A stretch of DNA of 64,000 bases from Candidatus Spongiihabitans sp. (GCA_965261425.1 OZ253452.1:2592645-2656644); one strand, 5' to 3'; positions 14,268 to 41,340 are shown, numbered from the stretch's first letter. Notes: a model not told the origin generated them from the sequence alone. Made by a program: numbers and translations.

Positions 14268-15719
14268 TCACCTTTCCACGCAGGCATCAAGACTGTTAAA
14301 CTGATGTAAAACTTCATTAGCAAAGATATCTGATTTTGTCAAAACAGGTCCGAAAATAGTTTCTACATCAATAATCGCGCTAACTAAATCCTTTGATTCT
14401 GAGCCCGTTTTGACAATCAGGTGTCGCAGACTTTCCGCCATAGGATCATTCAAGACGAACTTAAATTCACCCTTCATTTGGACAGATATGTACCCAATCC
14501 ATGCCGCCACGCATTTTGCTAGACACTTTATTGGCAAGCCATTGCCGAGTCGTTCTTGAATTGGATGCAAAATTCTTTGGGGTAGTTTTTGTGAGCCATC
14601 AGCGGCAATTTGAGCTAATTTATGCTGCAGTCCGGTATTTTGGAAACGTTGAAATAATGCGGTTTGGTAATCTTCAACATCCACGTTTTTTGGTATATCA
14701 AGTGTCGGGGCGACCTCATCTTGCATGAGCTTCTTAATAAAATGGGAAAGTTGCCGGTCCTGCATTGCTTGGGCAACGGTTTCATGCCCCGCAAGAAGTC
14801 CTAAATAGGCTAAAGCAGAATGACTGCCATTCAGTAGCCTGAGCTTCATCACCTCAAAAGGATCAACGTCAGAAGTCATAAGAACGCCAACTTTTTCAAA
14901 AGCCGGTCGTCCAGCACAAAAATTATCTTCAATCACCCATTGACTGAATGGTTCGGTAACAACCGGCCAATTGTCTTTTAGACCGGTTTCTTTTAACAAT
15001 AAGCTGCGATCCTCATCCGTTGTTGCCGGGACAATTCTATCCACCATTGTGCTTGGAAATGTGACCTGCTTTTCAATCCATTGCACAATATCCGGGCACG
15101 ATAATTTTGCCAACATCAACACCACATTGCGACAGGTTTGACCATTTGCAGGAAGATTGTCGCAACTTAATATGGTAAACGGACCGCTCCCCGATTCTTT
15201 TCTGCGCCGCAAGGCTTCGACCAAGAACCCCGGAGCAGAGACCGGCGTTTGTGGCGTACGAAGATCAGCTACAATATCTGGATGGTTTGGGTTTAACTGA
15301 CCTGTTGCGGGATTATGACAATAGCCTTTTTCGGTAATTGTCAGCGAAACGATACGCGTGCTTGGGAGTGCCATCCTGTGCAATAATCTTTCGCTATCAC
15401 GAGACCCAACAAGCACCCTTAAAACACTGCCAATAATACGATATTGTGGAGCTTCTTCACCTTTTATGATTAGCGTATAAAGCCCATCCTGTGGGGTAAG
15501 CGCATTCGCTGTGTTGGCACTACGCAATGACGCACCAATAATTCCCCAATTTGGGTCGTGTTCCAGTATATCGTCTATATACACGGACTGGTGCGCCCGA
15601 TGAAAAGCTCCCATTCCAAGATGAACAATAGCGGGATTAATTGCCTTCCGGTCATAATTTGGAGTACGCACGGACATATTGTGCAGGCTTTGATTACTCA
15701 GTTTCACCCTTTGCTCCAA
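14268..15719 (-). CDS. uxuB: Mannitol dehydrogenase family / D-mannonate oxidoreductase (fructuronate reductase)
   Basis: HLGMGAFHRAHQ, SCDNL, MVDRIVP, KLRLLNGSH; adjacent to uxuA. Confidence 0.88.
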   Translation of the reverse strand: MEQRVKLSNQSLHNMSVRTPNYDRKAINPAIVHLGMGAFHRAHQSVYIDDILEHDPNWGIIGASLRSANTANALTPQDGLYTLIIKGEEAPQYRIIGSVLRVLVGSRDSERLLHRMALPSTRIVSLTITEKGYCHNPATGQLNPNHPDIVADLRTPQTPVSAPGFLVEALRRRKESGSGPFTILSCDNLPANGQTCRNVVLMLAKLSCPDIVQWIEKQVTFPSTMVDRIVPATTDEDRSLLLKETGLKDNWPVVTEPFSQWVIEDNFCAGRPAFEKVGVLMTSDVDPFEVMKLRLLNGSHSALAYLGLLAGHETVAQAMQDRQLSHFIKKLMQDEVAPTLDIPKNVDVEDYQTALFQRFQNTGLQHKLAQIAADGSQKLPQRILHPIQERLGNGLPIKCLAKCVAAWIGYISVQMKGEFKFVLNDPMAESLRHLIVKTGSESKDLVSAIIDVETIFGPVLTKSDIFANEVLHQFNSLDACVER

Positions 15720-15761
15720 ACTTCAATGATTGTACCCACATAATGGATATATTTCATACTT

Positions 15762-15869
15762 AGACCTTTGCACTATTAACGGAAGTGCGGCTTCAGCCGC
15801 GCAAGACCGTTGTAAATGACGGGACTAAAGCCCCACTTCAGATTATTTTTTGAATTATGCAGAGGTCTC
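15762..15869. mobile_element. MITE overlapping the uxuA stop codon
   Basis: AGACCTTTGCACTATT ... AATTATGCAGAGGTCTC. Confidence 0.75.
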
Positions 15870-17067
15870 ATACTAAATATTCCGTCGCTGCAATTGCACC
15901 ACGCAATTCCGCCAACCCTTTAAGACGACCGATACCCGTATAACCAGGATTTGTAGTGGGCTTGTCCAAATCATCGAATATTTGATAACCATGATCTGGG
16001 CGAAAAGGAATTTCACCGTGAACAACATGGTCGATCTTTCGACGGCGTTCCTCGGCTAACAATATTCCAATTATTGCTAGCATGTCAACATCACTATCCA
16101 AAGGCTCAGCCTCGTGAAAACTTTCGCCATCCGCTTCTCTTCGGGTGCCACGCAAGTGCGCAAAATAAATGCGCTCACTAAATTCTCGGGCCATTGCAGG
16201 CAAATTATTGTCAGCACGAACGCCCAAACTGCCAGTACAAAAAGTCAAGCCGTTAGACGAGCTAGGTGCTTGCAAAAACAAGTTTGCTAAATCATCACGG
16301 GTTGAAACCACCCGAGGCAGTCCAAGAAGTGAACGTGGCGGATCGTCGGGATGGATTGCCAAGCGAATTCCAAACTCTTCAGCCGTGGGTAAAATTTGTT
16401 GCAAAAACGCCAAAAGATTCGCACGCAAATCCGGTGAACCGATCTCGTTATAGCATTCAATATCGCGCTGAAATGTTATCAATCTGTGGGACTCGGTTGT
16501 GCTACCCGGCAACCCTGCCAAAATATTATTTGTCAATTTGCCAATGTCGCTGAGGTTTAATTGGTTAAATAAAATTTCAGCCTCGCTGATTTGCTGCTCG
16601 GAATAGTCTGCTTCTGCACCCGGTCGTTTCAAGATAAACAAATCAAAGGCGGCGAAAGCCTTGGCATCAAAACGTAGCGTTCTTCCACCGGAATCCAGCT
16701 GCCACTCTAAATCGGTGCGAGTCCAGTCAAGTAATGGCATGAAATTATAGCAAACTGTCGTTATTCCGAGCGCGGCTAGTGCCCGCAAACTTTCGTTGTA
16801 TGCGGAGATATATTTCGCTACAGATTTATCCGCCCGTTTTATTGCGTCATGTACTGGAATGCTCTCTACCACCGTCCATTGCAAGAGTTTGCCAGCATGA
16901 TTTCCCGCATTAATGAGCGACTGATGAGCAGTGACAGCATCCACTGTCCACGCCTCTCCTATGGGAATGTTATGCAGTGCCGATACAATATTATGTGCGC
17001 CTGATTGTCTAACATGATTAAGCGGAACGGGATCATTTGCACCAAACCAACGCCAAGCTTCTTGCAT
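15868..17067 (-). CDS. uxuA: Mannonate dehydratase
   Basis: WRWFG, VVESIPVH, CYNFMP, HPDDPP, RPDHG, GRLKGLAELRG. Confidence 0.97.
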   Translation of the reverse strand: MQEAWRWFGANDPVPLNHVRQSGAHNIVSALHNIPIGEAWTVDAVTAHQSLINAGNHAGKLLQWTVVESIPVHDAIKRADKSVAKYISAYNESLRALAALGITTVCYNFMPLLDWTRTDLEWQLDSGGRTLRFDAKAFAAFDLFILKRPGAEADYSEQQISEAEILFNQLNLSDIGKLTNNILAGLPGSTTESHRLITFQRDIECYNEIGSPDLRANLLAFLQQILPTAEEFGIRLAIHPDDPPRSLLGLPRVVSTRDDLANLFLQAPSSSNGLTFCTGSLGVRADNNLPAMAREFSERIYFAHLRGTRREADGESFHEAEPLDSDVDMLAIIGILLAEERRRKIDHVVHGEIPFRPDHGYQIFDDLDKPTTNPGYTGIGRLKGLAELRGAIAATEYLV

Positions 17068-17201
17068 AGTGATTTCCTCTCAAAAAAGTTAGATGTCCTG
17101 TTTAGACTTACCCGATCAATTCGCTCAGACCAAGCGCCTTTGCGCCGAGACGGCAACTACACCGCCGCTAATCAGGGTTTTTAATTGTACCGGAATGTGG
17201 C

Positions 17202-18392
17202 TCATCTCTTTTCCTCAATTATGAATGGGCCTATATGTGTCCGCACCACCTGCGGCCCATTTGCCGATTGCCGCCATTCGACAAATCGTGTCAAATCTCC
17301 GGTGGATTGGTTTTTTGTATCTCGACCAAGCATTCGAGCTGGATTGGTTTGGATAACGGTTAAAACTTGAGGAATTGTGTAACCATACCAGTTGATCATA
17401 TTACGCAATATTTTATCCATAGTGACCGCTGATCCGGCCAAATAGCTTGAGCCGGGAATGCGCACTGATCCGTCGGGCGACAATTCAATTTCGGTTTCAC
17501 CCAGGGTGTAAAAACCCGCGACACTCGCCCGACCCGCCGCCGCGACTGCGTCGGTGGTGAGAATGACACGATCCAACCCTTTGGCACGCACCATAGATTG
17601 AAGAGCCGGTCGCGGTACATGGATGCCATCCGCAATCAGCATCGCGGTCAATTTATCTTGAGCTAGTTGCCAAAAAATCTGATTATCTGTTTTGTGAAGC
17701 ATGTGCGGTAAGCCATTGCCCAAATGAGTACTGAGCGTAGCGCCAGCATCTACGGCGGCTTGAATCTGTAACAAATTGGCAGCAGAATGACCGATAGAGA
17801 CTCGGATGCCCCGCGCCGTTAATGTTGCAATAAGTTCGATAACCCCGCTAACTTCTGGCGCAACCGTCATCAGCCGAATCGGACGTGAGGTAGCCGCTTG
17901 CAAGGCATCGACAAATTCAATATTTGCGCTTGTCATATACTTGGCATCATGTGCGCCAGCATAGCCGTCTTTGGGCGACAGAAAGGGACCTTCTATATGA
18001 TAGCCTGCAACCATGAGTTGCCCGAGACGGCTGGATGAAACAAGTGCGTCAAGCTCCCGCAATGTTTCAATCATTCTATCTCTTGAGCCGGTAATCAGGG
18101 TCGGTAAAAATGTGGTAACACCGCTGAGTGCGATTTCCGCAAGAGCGCAGTCTAACTGCTCAGCACTAATCCCGCAGTTGTTAAAATCGACCCCAGCAAA
18201 ACCATTGACCTGTAAATCTACCAGACCTTCGGTAACAAAGTTGTTGGCAAAGTAATCAATGCCGACATTCGGTTTTTCTGCTCGTTGAAATTGACCATCA
18301 GGGTCAATCGTACAATCATAAACTTGACCGTCACCGGAAAAATAAACGGGCAAAATTTCCGGGCAATGGCGCGATTTTATATCCGAGAACAC
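17202..18392 (-). CDS. nagA: N-acetylglucosamine-6-phosphate deacetylase-like amidohydrolase
   Basis: DLQVNG, HIEGPF, GAH, GHS, THLGNG, DGIH, LAGS. Confidence 0.85.
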   Translation of the reverse strand: MFSDIKSRHCPEILPVYFSGDGQVYDCTIDPDGQFQRAEKPNVGIDYFANNFVTEGLVDLQVNGFAGVDFNNCGISAEQLDCALAEIALSGVTTFLPTLITGSRDRMIETLRELDALVSSSRLGQLMVAGYHIEGPFLSPKDGYAGAHDAKYMTSANIEFVDALQAATSRPIRLMTVAPEVSGVIELIATLTARGIRVSIGHSAANLLQIQAAVDAGATLSTHLGNGLPHMLHKTDNQIFWQLAQDKLTAMLIADGIHVPRPALQSMVRAKGLDRVILTTDAVAAAGRASVAGFYTLGETEIELSPDGSVRIPGSSYLAGSAVTMDKILRNMINWYGYTIPQVLTVIQTNPARMLGRDTKNQSTGDLTRFVEWRQSANGPQVVRTHIGPFIIEEKR

Positions 18393-18415
18393 GTTACACT
18401 TATTGTGAATTCAAG

Positions 18416-19171
18416 TCATTCATCGGCGCAATGGCCGTCTAGTTTGCTTGCCGCCGCCGCATCAAGAAACAACGCCACATTTGGGTGGTTTTGTAGCGCA
18501 GAAGCCGGGCACATATTGGTAATCGACCCTTGTACAGCGTCTCGCACAGCTTGCGCTTTACGGGCATCGGGTACGGTGCAAATAATATTATGACTTCTTA
18601 ATATTTGAGAGATACTCATTGTTATGGCTTCGTTTGGCACATCGGCTAAACTATCGAACCAACCTTCGGACACTTGTTGTGCCCGACATGCTGGATCTAG
18701 GGAAGCCCGTAAATATGGATTATTCTCACTAAAATTTGCTGGAGGGTCATTGAATGCCAAATGACCATTTTCCCCAATTCCGATAAAGGCAACATCTATG
18801 GGTGCGATTCCAATCACCCTACTTAGCCGAGCAATTTCACTTTCTAAATCATTTGCCATACCATCAATAGCCTCAAAATGTTTCAACTTATGCAGTCGGT
18901 TTACGAAGCGCTCCTTGATGTATTTCACAAAACTTGCGGGGTGGTTCTGAGAGAGGTTGATATATTCATCAAGGTGAAAAACCGTGCATTTAGACCAATC
19001 AACATTGGTCTGTTTAACCAGTTTATCCAACATATCGAACTGACTGCTCCCCGTCGCCAATATAATCCGCACATCACCCTTCTTATCAATTGCCTGCCTT
19101 ATTAAATCAGCCCCCTGCGCTGAGGCATGCTGTCCAGACGCAATAGATGTTTGTGCGATATTGATTTTCAT
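18416..19171 (-). CDS. nagB: Glucosamine-6-phosphate deaminase-like protein
   Basis: LATGSSQ, FHLDEY, GIGENGHLAFNDP, PASALQ. Confidence 0.85.
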   Translation of the reverse strand: MKINIAQTSIASGQHASAQGADLIRQAIDKKGDVRIILATGSSQFDMLDKLVKQTNVDWSKCTVFHLDEYINLSQNHPASFVKYIKERFVNRLHKLKHFEAIDGMANDLESEIARLSRVIGIAPIDVAFIGIGENGHLAFNDPPANFSENNPYLRASLDPACRAQQVSEGWFDSLADVPNEAITMSISQILRSHNIICTVPDARKAQAVRDAVQGSITNMCPASALQNHPNVALFLDAAAASKLDGHCADE

Positions 19172-19206
19172 GTCATTTCCTGTTGAAGTGATAAATTGAA
19201 CTTTAA

Positions 19207-19929
19207 CTACTCGGTACGACCACTCGGGTTATCAGGTAGTGGTTCGTCGAAAAAACTCGGGTTTGCTTGAATAATTTGTGGAAGCTCTAGCAGAATCTCC
19301 CGCAAGTGATGGCGGATGGCGGCTTCTGCACCATCAATATCACTCTGTTCTATTGTATCTACGATTGCGGTGTGTTGTAAAATGAGCGTAGCAAAAGAAA
19401 ATTGACCAAGACTGATGAATCGTACGCGATCCATCTGCGATTTTAGCCCTTCAATAAACTTCCATGCACCAGCCTTGCCGGCCGCTTCAGCCAGCGTTCG
19501 ATGGAAATGTTCATCAAGCAAGGTAAAGTTCGGAGATACCTCATTTGCGACCTTTTTTTGCGCTTCCAATTGACTGCGTAGTTCTGTGATTAAGGCAACA
19601 TCTGGTTGTGCCGCCAGAAGTTTCACGATATCGGACTCGATAGCCTCACGCACAAAACGCGCATCCAATACCGAATTGCAGGCAATTTTTCTGACCACCG
19701 TACCACGCTGAGGGCGAACTATGATTAACCCTTCCTCGACCAGTTTGATAAAGGCTTCTCGCACTGGTTGGCGACTGACCGAGTAGGCATTGGCGATTTC
19801 GGATTCGGAAATACGGCTACCCGGAAACAAGTCACAATATACGATGCGCTCGCGCAAAATACGATGAAGCTGCGGCCCGATTGGTAACGATTGATCCAAA
19901 TTCCATCGTTGTTTATCTATTTCTGTCAT
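19207..19929 (-). CDS. GntR/FadR-family regulator (FCD domain); start re-assigned to ATG 19929
   Basis: SE..IA..YSVSRQPVREAF, PQRGT, LDEHFH, HH motifs. Confidence 0.92.
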   Translation of the reverse strand: MTEIDKQRWNLDQSLPIGPQLHRILRERIVYCDLFPGSRISESEIANAYSVSRQPVREAFIKLVEEGLIIVRPQRGTVVRKIACNSVLDARFVREAIESDIVKLLAAQPDVALITELRSQLEAQKKVANEVSPNFTLLDEHFHRTLAEAAGKAGAWKFIEGLKSQMDRVRFISLGQFSFATLILQHTAIVDTIEQSDIDGAEAAIRHHLREILLELPQIIQANPSFFDEPLPDNPSGRTE

Positions 19930-19971
19930 GCAAATGTATGTGCTTATTAATTTCATTAATCTATTTAAAGC

Positions 19972-20068
19972 CATACTACCATACAATATTACTATTATCC
20001 TGTCAACATACTTTACTCGTAACAATCCACCGAAAAGTGTTGACAAGTATAGTAGTATGGTGTAGATT
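19972..20068. promoter_or_regulatory. Divergent promoter region: sigma70 promoter for TRAP operon plus two inverted candidate GntR operators
   Basis: TTGACA 20040-45, 17 bp, TAGATT 20063-68; CATACTACCATAC 19972-84 and GTATAGTAGTATG 20047-59. Confidence 0.6.
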
Positions 20069-20111
20069 GACCAGTCCATTAGTATGAAACTTAACAATTA
20101 GGAGGTAAACC

Positions 20112-21107
20112 ATGATGAAAAACTCAAGAGAATTTATGAAAACAATAGTTGGGGTAAGTATTTTACTCAGCGTTTGGCTGGGGGCGGGTTCAGCATTTGC
20201 GGAAACAAAAATTACATTTGCAACTGGTTTTGCTGGCGGGAGCGGACAGATTGGTCAAACCATGTCCCGCTTCAAAGAACTTGCCGAGGAGCGTTCTGGT
20301 GGCTCTTTGTCAGTTGACTTATTTAGTGATGGTGCCCTTGGCAATGAACGTGAGATTCTGGAATCCATGTCTGTTGGCTCTACAGACATGTCGCTGGCGG
20401 GTATCTCCGATGTGGTTTACTGGCTCCCTGAATATTTTTTATCGGTGCCCTATTTGTTTGAGAGTATAGAACATGTGCGGGCAGTTTATGATGGTCCAAT
20501 TGGTCAGAATATCGATAAACTGATGTTAGAGAAGAAGAATTTGCGAACGCTTGCTATTATGAATCGTGGCGCGCGGAACATATCATCCAATAGACGCATT
20601 GAAAAACCAGCAGACATAAAAGGACTTCGCCTTCGCATGCCCGAGAATCCATTGTGGATTGCAATATGGAAGCAATTAGGCCCAATCCCAACGACTATTT
20701 CGTTTAGCGAGTTATACACAGCACTACAAACGGATGTGGTTGAGGCGCAGGAAAACCCGCTAGAAGCGATTATTAACGCTAAGTTTTTTGAAGTACAGGA
20801 TTACGTTATCCTGACCGGCCATGTTCGTGATGTTTATAAAATTCAAATTTCAGAACATGCTTGGAAAAAGCTGGACCAAGATCAACAAAGTGCATTGAGT
20901 GAAGCAGCTAAAGAAGCTGCATTGTTTGGTGATGGTCTGTTAGCGGATGCGGAAGCTGAATATCTTGAAATCTTAAAGAAATCCGGCACCGAAGTGATCA
21001 AGGTAAACCCTCAAGACTTTGCTGATGCAATGTCTAAATCAAGGGAAATTGCCGATAAATTTCTCTTACCCGGTCTTTACCAGCAAGTGAGAGATGTCCT
21101 CAATTGA
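20112..21107 (+). CDS. dctP: TRAP substrate-binding protein
   Basis: Signal peptide; KGLRLRMP, FSELYTALQT, AQENP; GGAGG RBS. Confidence 0.93.
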   Translation: MMKNSREFMKTIVGVSILLSVWLGAGSAFAETKITFATGFAGGSGQIGQTMSRFKELAEERSGGSLSVDLFSDGALGNEREILESMSVGSTDMSLAGISDVVYWLPEYFLSVPYLFESIEHVRAVYDGPIGQNIDKLMLEKKNLRTLAIMNRGARNISSNRRIEKPADIKGLRLRMPENPLWIAIWKQLGPIPTTISFSELYTALQTDVVEAQENPLEAIINAKFFEVQDYVILTGHVRDVYKIQISEHAWKKLDQDQQSALSEAAKEAALFGDGLLADAEAEYLEILKKSGTEVIKVNPQDFADAMSKSREIADKFLLPGLYQQVRDVLN

Positions 21108-21361
21108 TGTGTCGGTATGCAGTATCCGTTTTTCACGAGCCGGAATTTTGTTTGCTAGCTTTTTGTTTGCTAGATCAAGAAAAAGTGTGCGGAATGAGGA
21201 AGTTTATACTTATAAATGAGCGATTAAGTACGCTTTTGACATGACACTGCTAGGTAACAAGAACTAAGGCACAGAACTAGTGTGCGGCTCCCACTATATG
21301 TTGCTTAAAACTGGGGGTCGCAGGCTAATCTAACAATCAAACAACGTTAGACGTTTGGCTC

Positions 21362-21826
21362 ATGAAAAAACTGGAAAAAGTTCTTTTTATCGCAATTTTA
21401 TCCTTATTTATCTTAATGATAGTGTTGGTCAGCATGCAAGTGTTGAACCGTTATGTCGTTCATGCCTCCACACCTTGGACAGAGGAAATAACGCGCATTG
21501 CTTACATACTGATGATTTATGTAGGCAGTGTGTTGGCGGTTATTCAAAATAATCATGTACGCATAACCATTATTGAGCGGCATCTCTCCTCTGCGCTACG
21601 TCATTTTATTTGGATTGTTATTTCGCTCATGTCGTCTTTGTTTTTTGTCGTGGTGGCTTTTGGAAACTACGCTTATGTACAGGTTAACTGGGGCGCAAAA
21701 TTCCCAACCACACCAATTTTAACGGTTGGGCATGTGATGGCTGTTGTCATGGTGTGTTCAGGCACTATGGCCATTATGTATTTCTTCAACATTTTTAAGC
21801 CGATGCCAAACAATAAAGACATGTAA
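21362..21826 (+). CDS. dctQ: TRAP small permease
   Basis: QVLNRY, WTEE, HVRI motifs. Confidence 0.9.
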   Translation: MKKLEKVLFIAILSLFILMIVLVSMQVLNRYVVHASTPWTEEITRIAYILMIYVGSVLAVIQNNHVRITIIERHLSSALRHFIWIVISLMSSLFFVVVAFGNYAYVQVNWGAKFPTTPILTVGHVMAVVMVCSGTMAIMYFFNIFKPMPNNKDM

Positions 21827-21956
21827 GAGACCTTTGCATAATTCAAAATGTCGGCAGAATAGCGATTAAAACTGTTCCTATTACGATAAACAATGGCGTT
21901 TTTAACGGAAAAACAGGAGTTTTGGTGGCAATCATATTTATTTTATGCAAAGGTCT
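21827..21956. mobile_element. MITE between dctQ and dctM
   Basis: GAGACCTTTGCATAA ... TTATGCAAAGGTCT. Confidence 0.8.
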
Positions 21957-22148
21957 AATTAAACTTAAACAGCAGTAATGAACGCGCTCAAACATGGACG
22001 GCACAGACGGACGGATTGGCAACACATTATGGTTAGTTTGGCGGTATGGTGATGGAATGTCCGCTTCTCGTTGCTGGAAAACAGCGGCAAGGATCCAAAA
22101 ATGTGCTGGATTGGTTAACCTACTAACAACACGAAGAACAACCTAATA

Positions 22149-23435
22149 ATGACTGTTTTCCTAATTCTGCTGCTTTTGATATTGTTGATTCTTATAGGTT
22201 TTCCAATTGCTCTGTCGCTTGGGATAACCTCTTTAATTGCGCTTTATATATTGTTTGGCTGGGACGCACCAATAGATTTAGTCGCACAGCGCATGTATTA
22301 CGGCGTGAACAGCTTCCTGTTGATTGCAGTGCCCTTTTTTATGCTCGCGGGCGAAATTATGAATCGCTCTGGGGCAACAAGTCGGCTTTTTAAGTTTGCC
22401 GACTCGGTGGTAGGTTCGTTGCCGGGCGGCTTGGGGCATGTGAACATCGCATCCAGCTTTATTTTTGCAGGCATGTCCGGGTCGGCAGCAGCCGACGCAG
22501 CCGGACTCGGAGCAATTGAAATACAAGCGATGAAGGAAAAAGGCTTTCCGATGCCTTTTTCGGCAGGGTTAACAGCGGTGTCTTCGACCGTGGGACCTTT
22601 GGTGCCACCATCCATTCCAATGATTGTATTTGGTGTGGTCTCGGGCACATCCGTCGGAGGATTGTTTCTGGCGGGTGTTGTGCCGGGATTGCTGGTGTGT
22701 TTTTTCCTTAGTGTGTTGGTTTGGGTCTGGGGCGCAAAAGAAAACTTTCCTAGAAATAAGGCGTTTTCGTTTCGTATAATGTGCGCCACATTGAAACCGG
22801 CAATCTTGCCGTTGATGACACCGGTTATTGTGCTTGCAGGGATATTTGGGGGATATTTTACCCCAACGGAAGCCTCGGTTATAGCGGTAATTTATACAAG
22901 TTTTTTAGGCGTTGTGGTTTACCGTGAAATTACCGTTCGGGATTTTGGCGGAATTTTAGGTAACGTGGCCCGCGAAATTGCCCCTTTAATGTTAATCGTC
23001 GCAACTGCTTCATTGTTTGGTTACCTAATGATTCGTCTGGGTATGCCACGTCAATTATCAGAGCTTATTTTATCGACAACAGAGAACCCAACCATTATTC
23101 TGTTCCTCATCGTTTTCATTTTACTTGCCGTAGGGTTTTTTATGGAAACGATAAGTGCGATCATCATTTTCACGCCATTGTTTATGCCGGTAGCCATTAC
23201 ATCGGGGATATCACCTCTGCATTTAGGAGTGATTATGATAATAACGCTAATGGCTGGCGTAATTACGCCGCCGGTGGGGATTGTCTTGTTTATTCTGCAA
23301 AAGATATCAGGGATGCCCATCGAAGCGGTATTTAAGGCGGTAATCCCGTTTTTTATTCCGCTACTTATTGCAATTGTAGTTTTAGTGCTGGTTCCGCAAA
23401 TTTCATTGTTTCTGCCAAACCTTGTTTACAAGTGA
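22149..23435 (+). CDS. dctM: TRAP large permease
   Basis: AVPFFMLAG, SGSAAAD, PPSIP, FTPTEA, TPPVG. Confidence 0.95.
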   Translation: MTVFLILLLLILLILIGFPIALSLGITSLIALYILFGWDAPIDLVAQRMYYGVNSFLLIAVPFFMLAGEIMNRSGATSRLFKFADSVVGSLPGGLGHVNIASSFIFAGMSGSAAADAAGLGAIEIQAMKEKGFPMPFSAGLTAVSSTVGPLVPPSIPMIVFGVVSGTSVGGLFLAGVVPGLLVCFFLSVLVWVWGAKENFPRNKAFSFRIMCATLKPAILPLMTPVIVLAGIFGGYFTPTEASVIAVIYTSFLGVVVYREITVRDFGGILGNVAREIAPLMLIVATASLFGYLMIRLGMPRQLSELILSTTENPTIILFLIVFILLAVGFFMETISAIIIFTPLFMPVAITSGISPLHLGVIMIITLMAGVITPPVGIVLFILQKISGMPIEAVFKAVIPFFIPLLIAIVVLVLVPQISLFLPNLVYK

Positions 23436-23480
23436 TGCGAGCATCATCGTAAGCAAACAGCATCTATAACAAAGGCAAGA

Positions 23481-24560
23481 ATGATGACCATTTATAAAAT
23501 TGGTGTTGTAGGCGGTGGTATCTACGGTTCTCATATGCTTAAATGTTTTGCCAATCAGCAGCATATGGGGCGTGTCGAATTGGTCGCTGTTGCTGATCTT
23601 GATAAGAACATTCTTGCGCGTCATGCGGAGACATTTGGAACGCAAGGCTTTACCAACTATACCGCGATGATGGCAGAGACAAATCTTGATGCCGTCGCTA
23701 TCGCTACCCCAGATCATCTGCATTTCGATATTATTGAGACCGCCGCAACGGCTGGGTTACACATCATTTCGCAAAAGCCGTTGGATGTCAATATCGAACG
23801 TACTGAGCGAATTATCAATATCTGTGAAGCAGCTCAGGTTTTACTTTATGTGGATTTTCACAAGCGATTTGACCCAGCGCATATTCGCTTGAAGCAGGAT
23901 GTTGTAGCGGGTCGGCTCGGCAAACTGCAATACGGTCATGTTCATATGGAGGATAAAATCATTGTGCCCACAGTATGGCTGAAAAAATGGGCTGCTAGTT
24001 CCTCACCCTCGTGGTTCCTTGGGACTCATTTCTATGACCTCGTATTCTGGCTAACTGGTCAGTTACCAAAAAGAGTGTTGGCAAGTGGGTATAAGGGCAA
24101 ACTTGAATCACTCGGACTTGTCGGTGCTTGGGATAGTATCCAAGCGAAAGTTGAATATGAAACGGGGTTTTCCGTCACCTATGACCTGAGCTGGATACTT
24201 CCAAACTCCTTTCCGTCAATTGTGAATCAAGGTATTCGGTTGGTTGGAGAAGAAGGTATAGCCGAGGTTGACAGTCAGGATCGTGGGTATTTCTCGGCTT
24301 ATAGCAGCGACACAGCAAGCATTGTCGTTAACCCGTTTGGTGCATTTGAAACCAATCATCCGATATTCGGCAATACGACAGAAGGATATACGTTCAAGTC
24401 GATGACATTTTTTATTGATTTGCTTCAAGCATTGGATAATGGTATGTCAATTGATGGGCTAAAGGGTTCATATCCAAATGCTAATGACGCACTAGTTTCA
24501 ACCCGCATTGGCTGTGCCATAGACGAAAGTTTGATGTCAGGCAAATTGGTCAATATCTGA
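23481..24560 (+). CDS. Gfo/Idh/MocA-family NAD(P) oxidoreductase
   Basis: GVVGGG, ATPDHLH, QKPL, HKRFDP. Confidence 0.9.
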   Translation: MMTIYKIGVVGGGIYGSHMLKCFANQQHMGRVELVAVADLDKNILARHAETFGTQGFTNYTAMMAETNLDAVAIATPDHLHFDIIETAATAGLHIISQKPLDVNIERTERIINICEAAQVLLYVDFHKRFDPAHIRLKQDVVAGRLGKLQYGHVHMEDKIIVPTVWLKKWAASSSPSWFLGTHFYDLVFWLTGQLPKRVLASGYKGKLESLGLVGAWDSIQAKVEYETGFSVTYDLSWILPNSFPSIVNQGIRLVGEEGIAEVDSQDRGYFSAYSSDTASIVVNPFGAFETNHPIFGNTTEGYTFKSMTFFIDLLQALDNGMSIDGLKGSYPNANDALVSTRIGCAIDESLMSGKLVNI

Positions 24561-24809
24561 GCATCTCCACAACCAATAATACGCGGTGAAATCCATATAA
24601 ACGATCCACGCAATCGATAGATTATGTATGCAAAATATGGTGTGGGTGTTTCTAACTGATTTTTAATATCGCTGTTATTGGTTGGAATACATAACAGTAA
24701 GAATATGGCGATAGTTGTCGAGCAATCACATGTTTTTCAACCCACTCAGTGTTTGACTCATAAAACACAAGTTTTAGAGCACTTGTATGCCACAATCTGA
24801 CGATATATA

Positions 24810-26582
24810 GACCCTGCTCATAAAATATATCTATCTGAATATAAACAAATAATAGTGGTCTTGTGGTATAATTTTGCATGGAAATCAGCCCAATAACCTC
24901 TAAAACCTTGCAGCTATGATTGATTATAACGATTCCAACCAATGTACTATCGCAGAATTTGACTGGCCGTTTCACGCCGCCCTTGATGCACACAACCGCT
25001 GGGTAAAACTAGGTCAGTGCATTCCATGGGATGGGTTGGCACAGGGCTATCATAAAAGCCTCTCGTCAAAGCGGGGTCGGCCAGCAAAAGATGCTCGTTT
25101 AGTCATCGGTGCGGTGATCATCAAACACAAACTAGGGTTGTCTGATCGTGAAACGGTGAGTCAGATTCAGGAGAATCCGTATCTGCAATACTTTGTCGGG
25201 CTTGCCGGTTACCAAAGATCAGTCCCGTTTGTACCCTCGTTGCTGGTTGAAGTACGCAAGCGTATGGGGGATACTGTTTTTGAAGTGTTCCATCAAGCGA
25301 TTATTGGTGCTGTGGAAAAGGCGCAGGTCGTGCCGCAACGCAGCGTTAAGGATGGTTTGAAGGTATCCACACAGGCCAACAAGTCGGGTGATGAATCAGA
25401 GCCAGAGTCCGTGCCAGAGTCGAAACCAGAACCAGAATCCAATCAAGACCCACAAGGGGAGGATAATTCCCCAATTTCGCCTGCCACCACTGTGGAAGCA
25501 CCCAGCCACGAAGGTAAGTTGATAATCGATGCGACTGTGGCAGAGCAAGCGATACGGTATCCCACGGATTTAAGTTTACTGAATGAAGCGCGTGAGATGA
25601 CGGAACGGATCATTGACGAATTGTATCCACACACGGAGTTCAGTCAGAAACCACGCACCTATCGTCGCCAAGCACGTAAAGATTTTCTCGGGTTGGTCAA
25701 ACAGCGTCGTCCCAAGCGTCAAGCGACCCAACGAGCGATCAAGCAACAACTGCAATACTTGCGGCGCAATTTTGGTCATATTGAGGGTTTAATGGATTGT
25801 TTCCCGATGGGCACGGCGTTGCCTTTGTCACGCAGGCTGCTATACCACTACTGGGTCATTCAGCATGTCTATACGCAGCAGTGGGAGATGTACCGCAACA
25901 AAAGCCGACGCTGTGATAATCGGATTGTGAGCATTCATCAACCGTATGTGCGTCCGATTGTGCGAGGTAAGCAAGGTAAGTCGGTTGAGTTTGGTTCGAA
26001 GTTGAGCGTGAGTTTAACGGCACACGGGTTATCCCGAGTTGATCATTTAAGTTGGGATGCGTTTCATGAGGGGCATGATTTGCAGGGTCAGGTTGAGCGT
26101 TACCATGAACGTTATGGTTGCTACCCCGTAAGCGTTATCGGTGATCCGATATATGGTAGTCGAGAGAACCGGCACTACTTGAAAGGATTGGGCATCCGTT
26201 TTTCGGGCAAGCCATTAGGCAGACCCAAACAGGTAACAGAATCGAATCGAGAGTTATTGAAGCAATTAAAAGCCCAACGCCGGGCGGATTACCTACAACG
26301 GATTCCAATAGAAGGCAAATTTGGTCAGGCAAAGAACGGTTATCGGCTGAATTACATCCGTGCCAAACGAGCAGACACTTCGGTTGCATGGATCAACAGC
26401 ATTTTCCTAGTCATGAACCTGCTCATCCTGCTGAAGGTCTTTTTTGTGCCCAAAATAAGGCGACTAATAGGGTCGATAACGAACACTGGGCGACACCAAC
26501 TGCGATTATGTCGATGCGGAACTTGTCAACTGACTAACTCAATCGGCTTGGAACATCTAAAACTAATTTTATGAGCAGACTC
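24810..26582 (+). mobile_element. IS5-family element, complete
   Basis: IRs GACCCTGCTCATAAAAT / ATTTTATGAGCAGACTC; TATATA on both flanks. Confidence 0.92.
24916..26574 (+). CDS. IS5-family transposase
   Basis: ENPYLQYF, DATVA..IRYPTD, RPIVRGK..VEFG, IEGKFG. Confidence 0.93.
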   Translation: MIDYNDSNQCTIAEFDWPFHAALDAHNRWVKLGQCIPWDGLAQGYHKSLSSKRGRPAKDARLVIGAVIIKHKLGLSDRETVSQIQENPYLQYFVGLAGYQRSVPFVPSLLVEVRKRMGDTVFEVFHQAIIGAVEKAQVVPQRSVKDGLKVSTQANKSGDESEPESVPESKPEPESNQDPQGEDNSPISPATTVEAPSHEGKLIIDATVAEQAIRYPTDLSLLNEAREMTERIIDELYPHTEFSQKPRTYRRQARKDFLGLVKQRRPKRQATQRAIKQQLQYLRRNFGHIEGLMDCFPMGTALPLSRRLLYHYWVIQHVYTQQWEMYRNKSRRCDNRIVSIHQPYVRPIVRGKQGKSVEFGSKLSVSLTAHGLSRVDHLSWDAFHEGHDLQGQVERYHERYGCYPVSVIGDPIYGSRENRHYLKGLGIRFSGKPLGRPKQVTESNRELLKQLKAQRRADYLQRIPIEGKFGQAKNGYRLNYIRAKRADTSVAWINSIFLVMNLLILLKVFFVPKIRRLIGSITNTGRHQLRLCRCGTCQLTNSIGLEHLKLIL

Positions 26583-26643: not shown

Positions 26644-27696
26644 TCACCCTTCTTCGGATTGAAACGATAATTGCACCTTAACCGCTCGGGTTCGATCAGC
26701 GGCTGTGTCAAAGGCTGTAATCATATCTTTAAGAGAGAATATTTTACTAATCATCGGACGTAAATTTATTTCCCCCCTATCAATCAGCGCAACGGCTTCA
26801 GAGAATTCATGATGAAAGCGATGTGAGCCTTTAAGCACTATTTCTTTTCCGACAAGCAAGTTGATTGGCAAAGATATATCACCACTCACCCCAATTTGTA
26901 CAAGTATTCCACGTGGGCGCAACATCTCAATGGCAGATCGGATTGCAGGTGCGGCGGCGGAACACTCAAAAGCCACATCAAAATGTCCTTTGTCCTTGGT
27001 ATATCTGGTGATATCTTTGCTAGGTTTGGACATATTGATTGCCTTCGTGGCCCCCATGTCCATGGCCACCTTTAGCGGTACATTTTGCAAATCGGTTACA
27101 ACAACTTCGGCCGCACCCGCTTGTACGGCGAGTGCCACACATAGTACGCCAATCGGTCCGACACCAGTAACAAGCACATTACGACCGGCAAGGTCACCTG
27201 CCTGATTACGCGCATGCAGACAAACCGCAAGCGGTTCAGCACAAGCAGCTTCAGAAAGAGATGTTTGCGAATTGATCTTCACGCATTGCGCCTGCCCGAT
27301 CACGATTTTGTCCCGAAATGCCCCCTGTTCATGGGGAAAACGAATGGCAGAACCTAGAAAACGCATGTTCAGGCAGTGTTGAAACAAGCCCGTGTGACAA
27401 TAGCTACAAGCTTTACAGGGGCGGCTCGGATTTAAGGAAACACGATCTCCCTTGGCCAAACCTTGGACATCGGAGCCAGTATCAAGGACAGTCCCTGCCA
27501 CCTCGTGTCCCAAGATAATAGGCTCCTTCACTTGAATTGGACCGAACCCCCCATCCTGATAGTAATGCAGGTCAGAACCACATATCCCCCCAACCCCTAT
27601 CGCCACCAAGACCTGATCCGGGTTAAGAGCACTAATCGGTTGATTTTCTATACGGATATCTTTTTTGTCGTAGAGACAACAAACACGGGTTTGCAT
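26644..27696 (-). CDS. idnD: L-idonate 5-dehydrogenase-like Zn-dependent dehydrogenase
   Basis: GICGSDLHYY, GHE, Cys cluster, KVQLSF. Confidence 0.85.
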   Translation of the reverse strand: MQTRVCCLYDKKDIRIENQPISALNPDQVLVAIGVGGICGSDLHYYQDGGFGPIQVKEPIILGHEVAGTVLDTGSDVQGLAKGDRVSLNPSRPCKACSYCHTGLFQHCLNMRFLGSAIRFPHEQGAFRDKIVIGQAQCVKINSQTSLSEAACAEPLAVCLHARNQAGDLAGRNVLVTGVGPIGVLCVALAVQAGAAEVVVTDLQNVPLKVAMDMGATKAINMSKPSKDITRYTKDKGHFDVAFECSAAAPAIRSAIEMLRPRGILVQIGVSGDISLPINLLVGKEIVLKGSHRFHHEFSEAVALIDRGEINLRPMISKIFSLKDMITAFDTAADRTRAVKVQLSFQSEEG

Positions 27697-27705
27697 ATCT
27701 TCTTC

Positions 27706-28983
27706 CTAATGGATGAGAATCGAGGGCAACCAAGTTGCCAGAGCCGGAATGTAGGAGACTAACAGAAGCACCCCGATATTTGTTGCCAGAAAGGGAATAA
27801 TTGCCTGAACGACTGACGATAATGGTAGGCGAGCGATGCCTGCGCAAACGAAGAGGCACACCCCAACGGGCGGCGTAGTCAGTCCAATCATCAGGTTCAG
27901 CACGGCAAAGATTGCAAAATGCAATGGATCAATACCAACCGTCTCCGCGAGCGACAAAAGCGGAACGAACAGGATAATGAGTGCGGCTATTGTTTCCATG
28001 AACATGCCAACAAAGAGCAAAAGCAGATTGATGATTAAAATTACGAGAATCTTGCTTTCCGTAACAGAGAGAACTCCATTTACGATTGCTTGGGGAATGT
28101 GCTCCGATACCAAAATCCAACCAAATACGTTGGCAAAACCAACCAGAACTAAAATGGCAGACGAGGATACAGCACTATCCACAATGATCTTTGGTAAATC
28201 GCGTAGCGGAAGCTCGCGATAAACAAAGACCCCGACGACTAATGCATAAACACTGGCAACAACCGCAGTTTCCGTGGGTGTTGCGAGACCACTCAATAAC
28301 CCGTAAATAATCAATCCAGTCATTGCCAGGGCCCAAAGGGCATTGCTAAAGGAACGCACTATCTCCATCAACCCCCGCCAGGGCTGTCTAGGGAAGCCCT
28401 TTCTAACTGCAATAACATAGGCTGTGCCCATCATGGCAAGCCCCATCAAGACACCGGGGACAGCCCCGGCTATAAACATCTTCCCAACAGAAATCCCCGA
28501 CAATGATCCGACGATAATCATCGGTACGCTTGGCGGGATAATCGGACCGACAGTAGAAGATGCTGCCGTAACTGCCGCCGAAAAACTTGCTGGGTAGCCC
28601 GCTTTTTTCATTCCCGGAATCATAACCCCGCCGATAGAGGCCGCATCGGCTACCGCAGTCCCTGTGATACCCCCAAATAGCATTGAAGCAGCAACATTAG
28701 TCAGCCCCAAGCCTCCACGGATCCACCCGACAAGCGCGTTTGAAAACCGAATGACACGACTGGTGATTCCACCACTATTCATCAGGTTGCCTGCCAATAT
28801 GAATCCCGGAATGCTGAGCAGTACAAAAACATCTATACCGGCATACATTTTTTGCGGTATAACCACCACGGGAATACCGCTGACCAGAATATATGCAAAT
28901 GAAGCAAGCCCGAGGGTAACCGCAATCGGAATGCCAATCACAAGACCGATCAGAAACACAACGAGTAGAATCAATACGTCCAT
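27706..28983 (-). CDS. dctM: TRAP large permease
   Basis: GTAVAD, PPSVP, TPTE, TPPVG. Confidence 0.95.
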   Translation of the reverse strand: MDVLILLVVFLIGLVIGIPIAVTLGLASFAYILVSGIPVVVIPQKMYAGIDVFVLLSIPGFILAGNLMNSGGITSRVIRFSNALVGWIRGGLGLTNVAASMLFGGITGTAVADAASIGGVMIPGMKKAGYPASFSAAVTAASSTVGPIIPPSVPMIIVGSLSGISVGKMFIAGAVPGVLMGLAMMGTAYVIAVRKGFPRQPWRGLMEIVRSFSNALWALAMTGLIIYGLLSGLATPTETAVVASVYALVVGVFVYRELPLRDLPKIIVDSAVSSSAILVLVGFANVFGWILVSEHIPQAIVNGVLSVTESKILVILIINLLLLFVGMFMETIAALIILFVPLLSLAETVGIDPLHFAIFAVLNLMIGLTTPPVGVCLFVCAGIARLPLSSVVQAIIPFLATNIGVLLLVSYIPALATWLPSILIH

Positions 28984-29483
28984 CAGCGGGAGCTTTCAAA
29001 TTTGGAAGAGTACCCATCACTTTTGCCGCGCAACATCTCTGCTACATGCAATAGTGAAAATATCATCAAGAAGAAAAGCAGGATTAACACACTCACATGG
29101 GCAAAGTCCATACGCAAACCCATTGCCGCAGATGTTTGCAGACGACCAATCGAAGTGTATTGCCAAGCCGGCATAATTAGCAGAAAACACAGCAAACTGG
29201 TAACGATAGCCGAGGTTATTCGTAGCTGGAACGGTAATTTTCCCGGCAGTGCCTCGCAAATGACATCAACATTTGCCAAGTCGCCACTCAGCAACGATAG
29301 CCCGGCCCCAAAAGCAACAAGGTGAAGGAGGGCAAAGCGTGTCAGCTCTTCTGTCCAGACGGGCGATGCGCCATAGAAACGACCGAAAACCTGGATAAGG
29401 ACCGCCCCTATCAAAACGATAAAGGCCAACCCAGTTCCCATTCGGCATACTCTTACTAAAAATCTGAATAGTCGTGCGATCAT
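28983..29483 (-). CDS. dctQ: TRAP small permease
   Basis: QVFGR, WTEELTR. Confidence 0.9.
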   Translation of the reverse strand: MIARLFRFLVRVCRMGTGLAFIVLIGAVLIQVFGRFYGASPVWTEELTRFALLHLVAFGAGLSLLSGDLANVDVICEALPGKLPFQLRITSAIVTSLLCFLLIMPAWQYTSIGRLQTSAAMGLRMDFAHVSVLILLFFLMIFSLLHVAEMLRGKSDGYSSKFESSR

Positions 29484-29562
29484 CGACAGGATCTTGTGGC
29501 ATCGAAAGAACAGATGCCGAGTATCCTACTCGACACCCGCACAAGTAAAGAAGTTTGGCAAC

Positions 29563-30534
29563 TTATTTCGCGAAAAGACCTTCGACAATGAGACGAATTT
29601 CATCGTTCACATTGGCAAGCACCGCGTCCTTAGCGCGTGAGGCAAACGCAGCACCATCCACCGTGACGAAAGTCATGCCTTTCTCTTGCAATTCTGCACC
29701 AAGTTTACTGTCATTTGCTAAAAACAATTCACGTTCATAAGTTTGGGCGCGACTTGCTGCTTCCGTCACGGCAACCTGATCATTAGTAGACAGAGACTGC
29801 CATGTATTTTCTGCAATCGTCAGATAGATCCAAGACCTTACATGCTCGGTCAAGTTTACATGTGTTTGAACTTCGTTGAAGTTCGCAGACTTGATCAATG
29901 CGAGTGGGTTTTCCTGAGCGTCAATCGTGCCGTTCTGTAGTGAGGTGAATACCTCGGAAAACGCCATCGGTGTCGGTTGTGCTCCGAGGGCACTCCAGAC
30001 ATCAACAAAAAGAGGTACATTAGGCACTCGCATCTTCAGACCATTCAATTCATCGGGGCTGGTAATCGGACGGTTCGAGGTCAGATTGCGTGGTCCGCGT
30101 GCAAAGAAGGCAATCGGGCGCACCCGCGCCTTCTCAATGATCTGGGCTTTGATCTGATCTCCAACCTTGCCGCTTGCCACCTTATCCATGTGTTCGAGCG
30201 ATTTATAAGCGTAAGGCACCGCAAGCAGTGCCGCCATGGGTGCCCAATTTTGCAAACTTTCCCCAGTGATAGTCATATCAACCGTACCAAGCTGCATCCC
30301 GTTGATTAGATCAATTTCTTTTCCCAAAGATTCATTGGGAAAAACCTGAACCTCAATCCGCCCATCGGTTAAAGTCGAAAGCTCTTTTCCAAATTTCACC
30401 GCAGCAAGATGCCATGGATTTTCTTCATTGGCTAAATGACCTAATTTGAGTGTTAGCTCGGCAGCACTGGCTGTTCCTGCAATGCAAACGACCCCTGTAA
30501 CTAAAAATCTTATGATATTCAAAAATGTTTTCAT
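29563..30534 (-). CDS. dctP: TRAP substrate-binding protein; start re-assigned to ATG 30534
   Basis: AGGAG RBS before MKTFLNII; GLKMRVP, FSEVFTSLQ, AQENP. Confidence 0.92.
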   Translation of the reverse strand: MKTFLNIIRFLVTGVVCIAGTASAAELTLKLGHLANEENPWHLAAVKFGKELSTLTDGRIEVQVFPNESLGKEIDLINGMQLGTVDMTITGESLQNWAPMAALLAVPYAYKSLEHMDKVASGKVGDQIKAQIIEKARVRPIAFFARGPRNLTSNRPITSPDELNGLKMRVPNVPLFVDVWSALGAQPTPMAFSEVFTSLQNGTIDAQENPLALIKSANFNEVQTHVNLTEHVRSWIYLTIAENTWQSLSTNDQVAVTEAASRAQTYERELFLANDSKLGAELQEKGMTFVTVDGAAFASRAKDAVLANVNDEIRLIVEGLFAK

Positions 30535-31041
30535 TGTTTTTCTCCTAAATTGTGAACTTGACATATGCGTCAGGTTATCAGATAGCGACCCGTTGAAAAA
30601 TGCGGAGCTGCTTGAATCATTTGCGGAAGATCGTTCAAAATCTTCTGCAAATCGTGGCTTCTCGATAAATTTTTCCACACTATGCTTTGTCCGTTGCTTC
30701 AGCCAACGTTCAAGAAAACAGTCACCGAGAGGATGAATTCGCAGTGTATCATTATGCAACTTTTTTTTGCCTTCCAATCAATAGTACAAAATGTTATGAA
30801 ACTGATGCTTGATCAGCACCGACTGATTCAACCGCCATCGTGCTTAATATATCGTTAAAATTATCTTTTCGAATTATTTATATCATTCTACCATACAATC
30901 ATTTGTTAATGTAAAGCATAAATGGTAAACTGTGTGTTTATATTCATAAAATTAGATAGTTAAGTCTATGTACACGACAGAAAGCAATACCCGCTCCTCC
31001 AGAGTGCGGGGAATCCGATACGAACAAGCAGGTATTCGGTT

Positions 31042-40006: not shown

Positions 40007-40041
40007 GCATCCGATAAACCATTTTTGACGTGGTTATTTAG

Positions 40042-41300: not shown

Positions 41301-41340
41301 AACATTCTCCGGTTATAATTGTAGATAGGTTGGATCATTT

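Follow-up and report, generated by a model that had tools for sequence, protein, structure and literature searches.

A 64,000-nucleotide stretch of DNA from Candidatus Spongiihabitans sp. (GCA_965261425.1 OZ253452.1:2592645-2656644; hereafter, the window) was found to carry a single sugar-acid catabolic island of about 18 kb, which was acquired horizontally and is now split by a copy of an IS5-family element. Four of its genes, encoding divergent members of the NagB and NagA families (nagB′ and nagA′) together with UxuA and UxuB, constitute a conserved, co-inherited module. Judging from the sequences, this module may feed an N-acetyl-hexosaminuronate of gluco or manno configuration, namely N-acetylglucosaminuronate (GlcNAcA) or N-acetylmannosaminuronate (ManNAcA), into the mannonate branch of sugar-acid catabolism without sugar phosphorylation, a proposal to which we give somewhat less than an even chance. 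Gene neighbourhoods are its basis: from the genes present, their acquisition by horizontal transfer, their conserved linkage and their paralogy with canonical nag genes of relatives, substrates are predicted for NagA′ and NagB′, a ligand for the binding protein DctP1 and a fate for 2-keto-3-deoxygluconate (KDG).

The nagB′-nagA′-uxuA-uxuB module and its relatives

Nine open reading frames (ORFs), all intact and full length, were identified in positions 14268-24560 (cluster A) by ORF listing and by Pfam and NCBIfam profile scans. An earlier sequence-only reading of the window had described gntR, nagB, nagA, uxuA and uxuB on one strand, and this gene order was borne out: gntR, nagB′, nagA′, uxuA and uxuB lie on the minus strand, and dctPQM and a Gfo/Idh/MocA gene are divergent from them. 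As had also been claimed, a kinase, a phosphotransferase system (PTS) component or the uronate isomerase UxaC was encoded by 0/9 of these ORFs. The mannonate dehydratase gene uxuA1 (15868..17067, minus strand) matched TIGR00695 at 459 bits (cut-off 199.55), with residues 1-396 of 399 covered. The uxuB-like gene (14268..15719, minus strand), which is single copy in the genome of the window (G000), encodes a fructuronate/mannonate oxidoreductase of the mannitol-dehydrogenase family (Pfam Mannitol_dh and Mannitol_dh_C). Its product scored 421 bits with the fructuronate reductase model NF011611, short of the cut-off of 603, 331 bits with the second-best model, D-arabinitol 4-dehydrogenase, and 397 bits with PDB entry 4IM7 (YdfI); its assignment as UxuB leans on adjacency to uxuA in four loci. 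The divergent NagA-family amidohydrolase encoded by nagA′ (17202..18392, minus strand) scored 210.5 bits with TIGR00221 (cut-off 225.65), 160 bits with NF008371 (cut-off 483) and 107-133 bits with NagA entries of PDB. For the divergent NagB-family deaminase/isomerase encoded by nagB′ (18416..19171, minus strand; PF01182), the scores were 138 bits with TIGR00502 (cut-off 236.9), 158.6 bits with the best subfamily model NF001684 (cut-off 326) and 114 bits with PDB entry 2BKV. The names nagA and nagB are therefore to be read as based on scores under the NCBIfam equivalog cut-offs.

Compared with other NagA clades, the NagA′ clade is much more frequently linked to uxuAB and carboxylate transporters. 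In a NagA tree of 115 rows, the window and loci L003, L084, L004, L006 and L085 formed one clade (SH-aLRT 98). With the window left out (n = 5), uxuA/uxuB were present in 3/5 loci of this clade, genes of a tripartite ATP-independent periplasmic (TRAP) transporter in 3/5, and at least one of both in 5/5. In the sister clade (n = 18), uxuA/uxuB were found in one locus and a TRAP subunit in none; the corresponding counts were zero and one in a third NagA group (n = 9), and zero and one among the remaining loci (n = 82). For all NagA loci outside the six-member clade, this amounts to 1/109 with uxu genes and 2/109 with TRAP genes. The six rows of the clade are kin and represent about four independent lineages (the window, L003/L084, L004 and L006/L085). 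Sequence matches also placed Hoeflea sp. TYP-13, Paracoccus caeni, Salipiger mangrovisoli, Thalassospira and Maritalea among the carriers of this clade. NagA′ proteins of the sister clade are shorter, and where its members were annotated, their neighbours encode an SBP_bac_8 binding protein and a ROK regulator; the two annotated loci of the third group carry a MurQ-like SIS gene together with genes for a BadF-type kinase and GntR/UTRA regulator.

The arrangement of the module was examined in these relatives. In L084, a metagenome contig, a divergent ROK-type regulator precedes the operon nagB′-nagA′-dctP-dctQ-dctM-uxuA-kdgK-uxaC-uxuB, in which nine genes are packed so as to overlap or nearly abut. 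Identities to the window were 64% for NagA, 62% for NagB, 69% for UxuA and 63% for UxuB. Since UxuA1 is much closer to the UxuA of L084 than to the product of uxuA2, a second copy in the same window (46% identity), nagB′, nagA′, uxuA1 and uxuB have travelled together. Locus L003, from a Blastopirellula metagenome-assembled genome (MAG), has a ROK gene and nagB′-nagA′-dctPQM up to the contig end; L004 (Martelella radicis) has nagB′-nagA′-ROK-dctP-dctM, likewise up to the contig end; and L006 (Tateyamaria MAG) and L085 have a ROK gene and nagB′-nagA′-uxaC-uxuB-uxuA beside an Opp-type ATP-binding cassette (ABC) system. Apart from the kdgK of L084, annotation of the flanks of L003, L004, L006, L084 and L085 showed no kinase, no PTS and no glycosidase family, in keeping with the proposed route. 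No UxaE family was encoded in the annotated loci either. NagA′/NagB′ thus occur beside at least three unrelated lineages of TRAP binding proteins, and beside ABC systems as well.

Two of the relatives also carry canonical amino-sugar operons. In Martelella radicis (G440), a second NagA, 33% identical, is encoded in a canonical operon of GntR/UTRA, SIS (NagB-II) and NagA genes, and the Blastopirellula MAG (G442) contains, besides its NagA′ cluster, a canonical operon of BadF-kinase, GntR/UTRA, SIS and NagA genes. Given these separate operons, NagA′ and NagB′ are extra paralogues in both genomes and not their housekeeping amino-sugar enzymes. In G000, NagA′ and NagB′ are the sole NagA and NagB homologues.

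NagB′ belongs to a very large clade, with at least 598 matching stretches in the species-genome collection, of which 80 loci were kept for the neighbourhood view. The clade is characterized by the motifs GIGENGHLAFNDPPA and CRxQQxxEGWF. Its members are mostly from Bacteroidota, Planctomycetota and Verrucomicrobiota, where the neighbouring NagA is 30-41% identical to NagA′ and uxu or TRAP genes are missing; these NagB′ members are probably ordinary deaminases. No kinase was seen near the annotated loci of this clade. In loci L011, L012, L019, L022, L046, L056, L087, L092 and others, Gfo/Idh/MocA genes and transporters of the Nramp-like, MFS or SSF type are frequent companions; a BNR sialidase-like gene is also present in L046, and a gene for a 3-keto-disaccharide hydrolase in L011. 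Locus L050 (Spirochaetales MAG, 14-10741) comprises GntR/FCD, LarA-like, NagA, two Gfo/Idh/MocA and dctMQP genes with a divergent NagB′ gene, and has no kinase and no uxu gene.

Horizontal acquisition of the island was apparent from its distribution. When 40 relatives were searched (6 of the genus, 18 of the family and 16 of the order), a NagA′ homologue at E ≤ 0.001 was found in 0/40, as was a DctP1 orthologue, and UxuB gave matches of 35-39% only, in 5/40. Relatives of NagA′ were found in 0/399 other genomes of the class, in 0/300 and 0/400 genomes around G441, and in 0/13 other genomes in the genus of G440. A plasmid search with DctP1 found nothing; the same search with NagA′ found short-form relatives only, with an ABC binding protein and a ROK regulator encoded alongside. 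In run X5, a 5.7-kb contig covering 15130-20850 (uxuB to dctP1) showed 47 differences and adapter-like letters at both ends.

A predicted kinase-free route to fructuronate

In the route proposed here, NagA′ would remove the acetyl group, and NagB′ would then isomerise and deaminate the 2-amino-uronate to D-fructuronate and ammonia. Fructuronate would be converted to D-mannonate by UxuB, and mannonate would be dehydrated to KDG by UxuA. What commends this order is that aldose-ketose deamination of a 2-amino-uronate by a NagB-type enzyme should yield exactly the substrate of UxuB. In an L084-type operon, glucuronate would enter via UxaC and the N-acetyl-2-amino-uronate via NagA′ and NagB′, with both converging on fructuronate. 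Such convergence would account most economically for a packed operon encoding a uronate-type importer, a full route from glucuronate to KDG 6-phosphate and a NagA/NagB pair, with no amino-sugar importer or kinase. The window keeps the four-gene module without uxaC and kdgK, under an FCD-type regulator and with a different TRAP and a Gfo/Idh/MocA gene alongside. More generally, and with a shade less confidence than we place in the route itself, a clade of NagA/NagB paralogues may have been recruited to C6-carboxylate sugars, which would be imported by TRAP or ABC systems and converted without a kinase to fructuronate, acetate and ammonia by genes on mobile islands; GlcNAcA and ManNAcA of capsules, O-antigens and exopolysaccharides would be the sources.

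The regulator and transporter of cluster A were also examined. The GntR-family regulator with an FCD effector domain (19207..20097, minus strand; PF00392 and PF07729), whose true start, judged from the sequence, is probably an internal Met near residue 57, has a 42%-identical homologue beside uxuA and nagB′-nagA′ in locus L095. TRAP solute-binding proteins and FCD regulators typically recognise carboxylates; the regulator may act as an acid-sugar sensor, and the divergent TRAP would import the same acid sugar or a related aldonate. All three subunits of this DctP-type TRAP are encoded together on the plus strand: the solute-binding protein DctP1 (20112..21107; PF03480; TIGR00787 202 bits, cut-off 175), the small membrane subunit DctQ1 (21362..21826; PF04290) and the large membrane subunit DctM1 (22149..23435; PF06808; TIGR00786 399 bits, cut-off 268). 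DctP1 forms an orthologue group of its own (59-79% identity), which includes proteins of Vibrio penaeicida, Mesobacillus harenae and a Tropicimonas MAG. Residues R155 and R175 of DctP1 are invariant in alignment A3 and lie 20 residues apart, which we take to be the spacing of the carboxylate-binding pair of SiaP; this favours an acid ligand of the kind proposed. The Gfo/Idh/MocA gene downstream (23481..24560, plus strand; PF01408, PF22725 and PF02894) encodes an NAD(P)-dependent sugar oxidoreductase with a 36%-identical homologue in the TRAP/NagA/NagB′ locus L050; in the sequence-only reading it was put forward as a candidate epimerase for ManNAcA or GalNAcA. For NagA′ and the Gfo/Idh/MocA enzyme, Protein Atlas returned generic family names only.

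The binding protein of L084 belongs to the only transporter of that operon. It scored 243 bits with 4OVR, whose ligand is presumably galacturonate, 240 bits with 4X8R and 220 bits with 4N8Y, and the binding protein of L003 is 83% identical to it. Of these, 4X8R is glucuronate-bound and 4N8Y galacturonate-bound (PMC11668362).

G000 is a single contig of 2.92 Mb and is 97.9% complete. No match to UxaC (PF02614) or Eda (PF01081) was found anywhere in G000; in control genomes, the same searches gave matches in 7/14 and 9/14, respectively. PTS EIIC was likewise absent from G000, and no BadF-type kinase scored over the cut-off. A ROK sugar kinase is encoded about 450 kb from the island, beside an IS5 copy and glycogen genes, and scored 243 bits with the fructokinase model (cut-off 443) and 200 bits with the NagK model (cut-off 380). 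A KdgK-like PfkB kinase is encoded about 400 kb from the island, and five DHDPS-family genes (four of them extra) and one HpcH aldolase gene are located elsewhere in the genome. In the locus G000:C1:2196000-2206000, the KdgK-like gene is accompanied by genes for RidA, a SelA-like PLP enzyme, an IclR regulator and an ABC transporter of the amino-acid type, a gene set that recalls catabolism of the glucosaminate type (a C1 acid amino sugar).

The proposed route was compared with known systems. It resembles the isomerase (Ashwell) hexuronate pathway (UxaC, UxuB, UxuA, KdgK and Eda) in that the window has UxuB and UxuA, with KDG as product, and in that uxaC is part of the operon in L084, L006 and L085, as is kdgK in L084; it differs in that the window and its genome are without UxaC and Eda, and in the NagA/NagB pair embedded in the operon. 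With canonical catabolism of N-acetylglucosamine (GlcNAc; NagE or NagK, NagA and NagB) it shares the same two enzyme families with their catalytic motifs kept, whereas NagA′ and NagB′ fall under the equivalog cut-offs, have no kinase or PTS with them and are linked to uxuAB and carboxylate transporters. The nearest precedent for its logic is the GlcNAc1A pathway for C1-oxidised chitin in Pseudoalteromonas prydzensis (OngB, OngC, OngD and KdgK), in which an acidic N-acetyl amino sugar loses its acetyl and amino groups on the way to KDG, with no phosphorylation beforehand (PMC9537276). There, however, the carboxylate is at C1 and not C6, UxuA and UxuB are not involved, and the enzymes are unrelated, comprising a D-aminoacylase-type deacetylase, a fold-type III pyridoxal phosphate (PLP) deaminase and RidA, with an SSS-family importer. 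None of these three Ong enzyme families was found among the island ORFs, and GlcNAc1A itself was rejected as a substrate because, in addition, NagB-type isomerisation should need a free C1 aldehyde. In a full-text search, judged on the beginnings of abstracts, catabolism of free N-acetyl-hexosaminuronates was not found described.

The adjoining cluster, the IS5 element and the rest of the window

The stretch considered in the sequence-only reading ended at 24560 and left out an adjoining cluster (26644-32271; cluster B) that is part of the same island. Between the Gfo gene and the zinc-dependent alcohol dehydrogenase (Zn-ADH) gene of cluster B sits an IS5-family element of 1779 bp (24804..26582, plus strand; transposase ORF 24916-26574; NF033578 368 bits), which splits the island. 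In contigs of sequencing runs X2, X3 and X6, the element is lacking and 24803 is joined directly to 26583, with 8 letters common. These IS5-free contigs in three other runs indicate that the IS5 copy is a recent insertion and that both clusters natively form a single island. G000 contains 31 near-full copies of the element; other transposase genes in the window are of the IS630, IS1634 and IS110 families and of a second IS5.

Cluster B encodes a Zn-dependent dehydrogenase similar to L-idonate/L-gulonate 5-dehydrogenase (26644..27696, minus strand; NF007375 368 bits, below the cut-off of 469; PDB 6DKH 277 bits), a second TRAP (dctM2, dctQ2 and dctP2; 27706..30777, minus strand; PF06808, PF04290 and TIGR00787) and a second mannonate dehydratase, uxuA2 (31042..32271, plus strand; TIGR00695 482 bits). 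DctP2 scored 523 bits with PDB entries 4PC9/4PCD and 147 bits with the L-gulonate binder 4PBQ. Cluster B has no uxuB of its own and must use the single UxuB of the genome, which is encoded in cluster A. In Haemophilus influenzae, a route for L-gulonate has been established experimentally with GulPQM, GulD, UxuB, UxuA, KdgK and KdgA, in which GulD forms fructuronate, UxuB mannonate and UxuA KDG (PMC5788505). By analogy, cluster B can be regarded as an L-gulonate/D-mannonate route of the Haemophilus type: like that system, it combines a Zn-ADH, a TRAP and a UxuA, with UxuB supplied from cluster A. It differs in that the genome is without KdgA/Eda and DctP2 is far nearer to 4PC9 than to 4PBQ, and in that the set is extended in cluster A by nagA′, nagB′ and a Gfo/Idh/MocA gene.

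Long gaps were noted between dctP and dctQ (254 bp), dctQ and dctM (322 bp) and uxuA and uxuB (148 bp). The gaps inside the TRAP operon are unusually long because short multi-copy repeats occupy them, and the uxuA-uxuB gap is filled in the same way. When the repeats were searched against the genome by blastn-short, the copy between dctP and dctQ (21162-21241) gave 7 matches, that between dctQ and dctM (21824-21862) 22, that between uxuA and uxuB (about 15780-15840) 15, and one downstream of aat (13958-13997) 216. Contig depth at the repeat sites was very high in other runs.

Elsewhere in the window, a polysaccharide biosynthesis cluster (47658-61988) encodes a TviB-like UDP-GlcNAc 6-dehydrogenase (652 bits, cut-off 592), a TviC-like epimerase, several GT2/GT4 glycosyltransferases and a flippase-like protein, and contains an IS110 copy. 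The TviB protein is 99% identical in G012, a genome of another genus of the same family, which suggests recent transfer. A trimethylamine N-oxide demethylase-like gene (NF053776 1149 bits, cut-off 1100) adjoins a betaine/choline-type ABC transporter whose fused permease, at 664 aa, is unusually long (36307-38676 and 39038-45179). Positions 1535-6037 hold four successive minus-strand ORFs (340, 423, 262 and 473 aa) with no Pfam or NCBIfam match, located between IS copies. Rfam and tRNA scans of the window gave no matches.

Competing explanations and significance

A number of observations weigh against the amino-uronate interpretation, which was only partly supported. The sequence-only reading had held that NagB replaces UxaC, and this fails in general, given that uxaC lies in the same operon in 3/3 relatives with uxuAB (L084, L006 and L085). 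Of the co-occurrence anticipated for this nagAB clade, with uxuAB and minus uxaC, the linkage to uxuAB and TRAP genes held and the absence of uxaC did not. A plain glucuronate operon together with ordinary NagA and NagB explains the linkage almost as well, and the linkage rests on about four independent lineages. Moreover, NagB′ is 50-57% identical to clade members of Bacteroidota and Planctomycetota that lie beside NagA with no uxu genes. DctP1 did not look like a uronate-type binder: it is nearest to the DctP2 family (36% identical to its paralogue DctP2) and not to the solved glucuronate/galacturonate binders, with a best PDB match of 184 bits to 4PC9/4PCD, whose ligands are presumably D-mannonate and L-galactonate, versus 120 bits to 4X8R. 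By sequence, DctP1 thus resembles aldonate binders; instead of an amino sugar, its cargo may be an aldonate destined for the Gfo, UxuB and UxuA steps. A link to the TviB/TviC-type enzymes of the window, which had been thought to make the sugars scavenged or recycled, was not borne out by co-inheritance: TviB-like genes were present in 14/40 relatives, and the island in 0/14 of these. Finally, G000 is without Eda and uxaC and is riddled with IS copies, and the island may be decaying.

The anion-binding residues, whose inspection the sequence-only reading had proposed, do not discriminate between substrates. In NagA′, the motifs HIEGPF, GAH, IGHS, THLGN and TTDA line up with their counterparts in the E. 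coli and human enzymes, and E134, H148, H202, H223 and D281 are invariant in alignment A2, so that the metal and catalytic motifs are kept; the E. coli metal and catalytic residues are taken to be E131, H143, H195, H216 and D273. At the position of the canonical phosphate-binding Arg, presumably R227 in E. coli, NagA′ has Lys234, and 120 aligned homologues have K in 47 and R in 70. Lys234 was rejected as a sign of a carboxylate substrate, being common to the group beside a BadF kinase and a MurQ-like gene; a K-type NagA in that setting means that Lys does not exclude phosphate. For E. coli NagB, we take the site residues to be D72, H143, E148, K208 and R172, the last two being the phosphate-binding Lys and Arg. 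NagB′ keeps D68, H137 and K205, with Asp142 at the E148 equivalent and Gly170 at the R172 equivalent across the whole clade. As Gly is clade-wide in a very large clade, Gly170 was also rejected as a carboxylate sign. At position 82 of NagB′, Arg was found in 85/102 loci and V, T or I in the five clade NagB′, corresponding to 2 changes on the NagB tree; this loss was rejected as clade-specific, with R present in only 74/150 diverse representatives. All three outcomes count against the amino-uronate proposal.

The main rival is that NagA′ and NagB′ are an ordinary GlcNAc-6-phosphate deacetylase and glucosamine-6-phosphate (GlcN-6-P) deaminase of a divergent lineage that merely lie beside hexuronate and aldonate genes, which we consider unlikely, though by a smaller measure than the other alternatives. 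The organism would then use uronates and GlcNAc together, with the GlcNAc transporter and kinase encoded elsewhere, and the uxu genes, both TRAPs, the Zn-ADH and the Gfo enzyme of the window would serve aldonates (L-gulonate and D-mannonate). The intact catalytic and metal-binding motifs of both enzymes agree with this, as do the paralogy of DctP1 and DctP2, the fit of cluster B to an L-gulonate route, the uxaC genes of the relatives, with which glucuronate alone justifies their uxu genes, and ROK-type regulators, which are typical of amino-sugar regulons. The wider NagB′ clade (80 loci of at least 598 matches) lies mostly beside NagA without uxu genes, and as these presumably ordinary NagB loci are also kinase-free, the absence of a kinase is weak evidence; the ROK kinase of G000 is, in addition, NagK-like at 200 bits. 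What this explanation leaves out of account is that the L084 operon encodes a uronate-type TRAP only, with no GlcNAc uptake or kinase, that G440 and G442 already have canonical nag operons, that NagA is found in 0/40 genomes of the order and G000 is without PTS or a BadF-type kinase, and that linkage to uxu and TRAP genes is restricted to a single NagA clade.

Another anionic N-acetyl amino sugar, imported by TRAP or ABC systems, could instead be the substrate, with the uxu genes serving a co-imported acid sugar. A 6-O-sulfated or otherwise substituted hexosamine would be a candidate, as would a sialic-acid-related compound on which the Gfo/Idh/MocA enzyme acts first. NagB′-clade genes do recur with Gfo/Idh/MocA genes and with TRAP, SBP_bac_8 ABC, Nramp-like, MFS and SSF transporters; L050 combines TRAP, two Gfo, NagA, NagB′ and GntR/FCD genes without uxu; L046 has a BNR sialidase-like gene; SiaP-type binders score about 140 bits with DctP1; and the FCD domain shows weak similarity to the NanR model (58 bits). 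However, NanA, NanK, NanE and sulfatase families were not seen in the island or the annotated relatives, the Gfo protein is near no solved enzyme (best PDB match only 72 bits), and the divergence of uxuA/uxuB in step with nagA′/nagB′ is left unexplained. We hold this alternative to be improbable. Least probable in our view is that a larger, L084-type operon survives in this genome as a non-functional or decaying remnant, with dctPQM, kdgK and uxaC lost and the downstream aldolase absent. Eda and UxaC were not found in the genome, one of the 31 IS5 copies is inside the island, and short repeats fill the unusually long dctP-dctQ, dctQ-dctM and uxuA-uxuB gaps, all as such decay would leave them. 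Yet the nine ORFs are all intact and full length, the genome encodes, away from the island, four extra aldolases of the DHDPS family, one HpcH aldolase and a KdgK-like kinase, and near-identical copies of the island are present in runs of other samples.

If the enzymes are ordinary GlcNAc-6-phosphate enzymes, the island would be an unremarkable mosaic of genes for uronates, aldonates and amino sugars. If the amino-uronate proposal is correct, the module would represent an undescribed catabolic pathway and fill a gap on the catabolism of N-acetyl-hexosaminuronates. N-acetylated amino-uronic acids are common in bacterial capsules, O-antigens, teichuronic acids and marine exopolysaccharides. NagA/NagB-fold enzymes would then act on a carboxylate in place of a phosphate, and the automatic label 'GlcNAc-6-phosphate deacetylase / GlcN-6-phosphate deaminase' on such proteins would be corrected.

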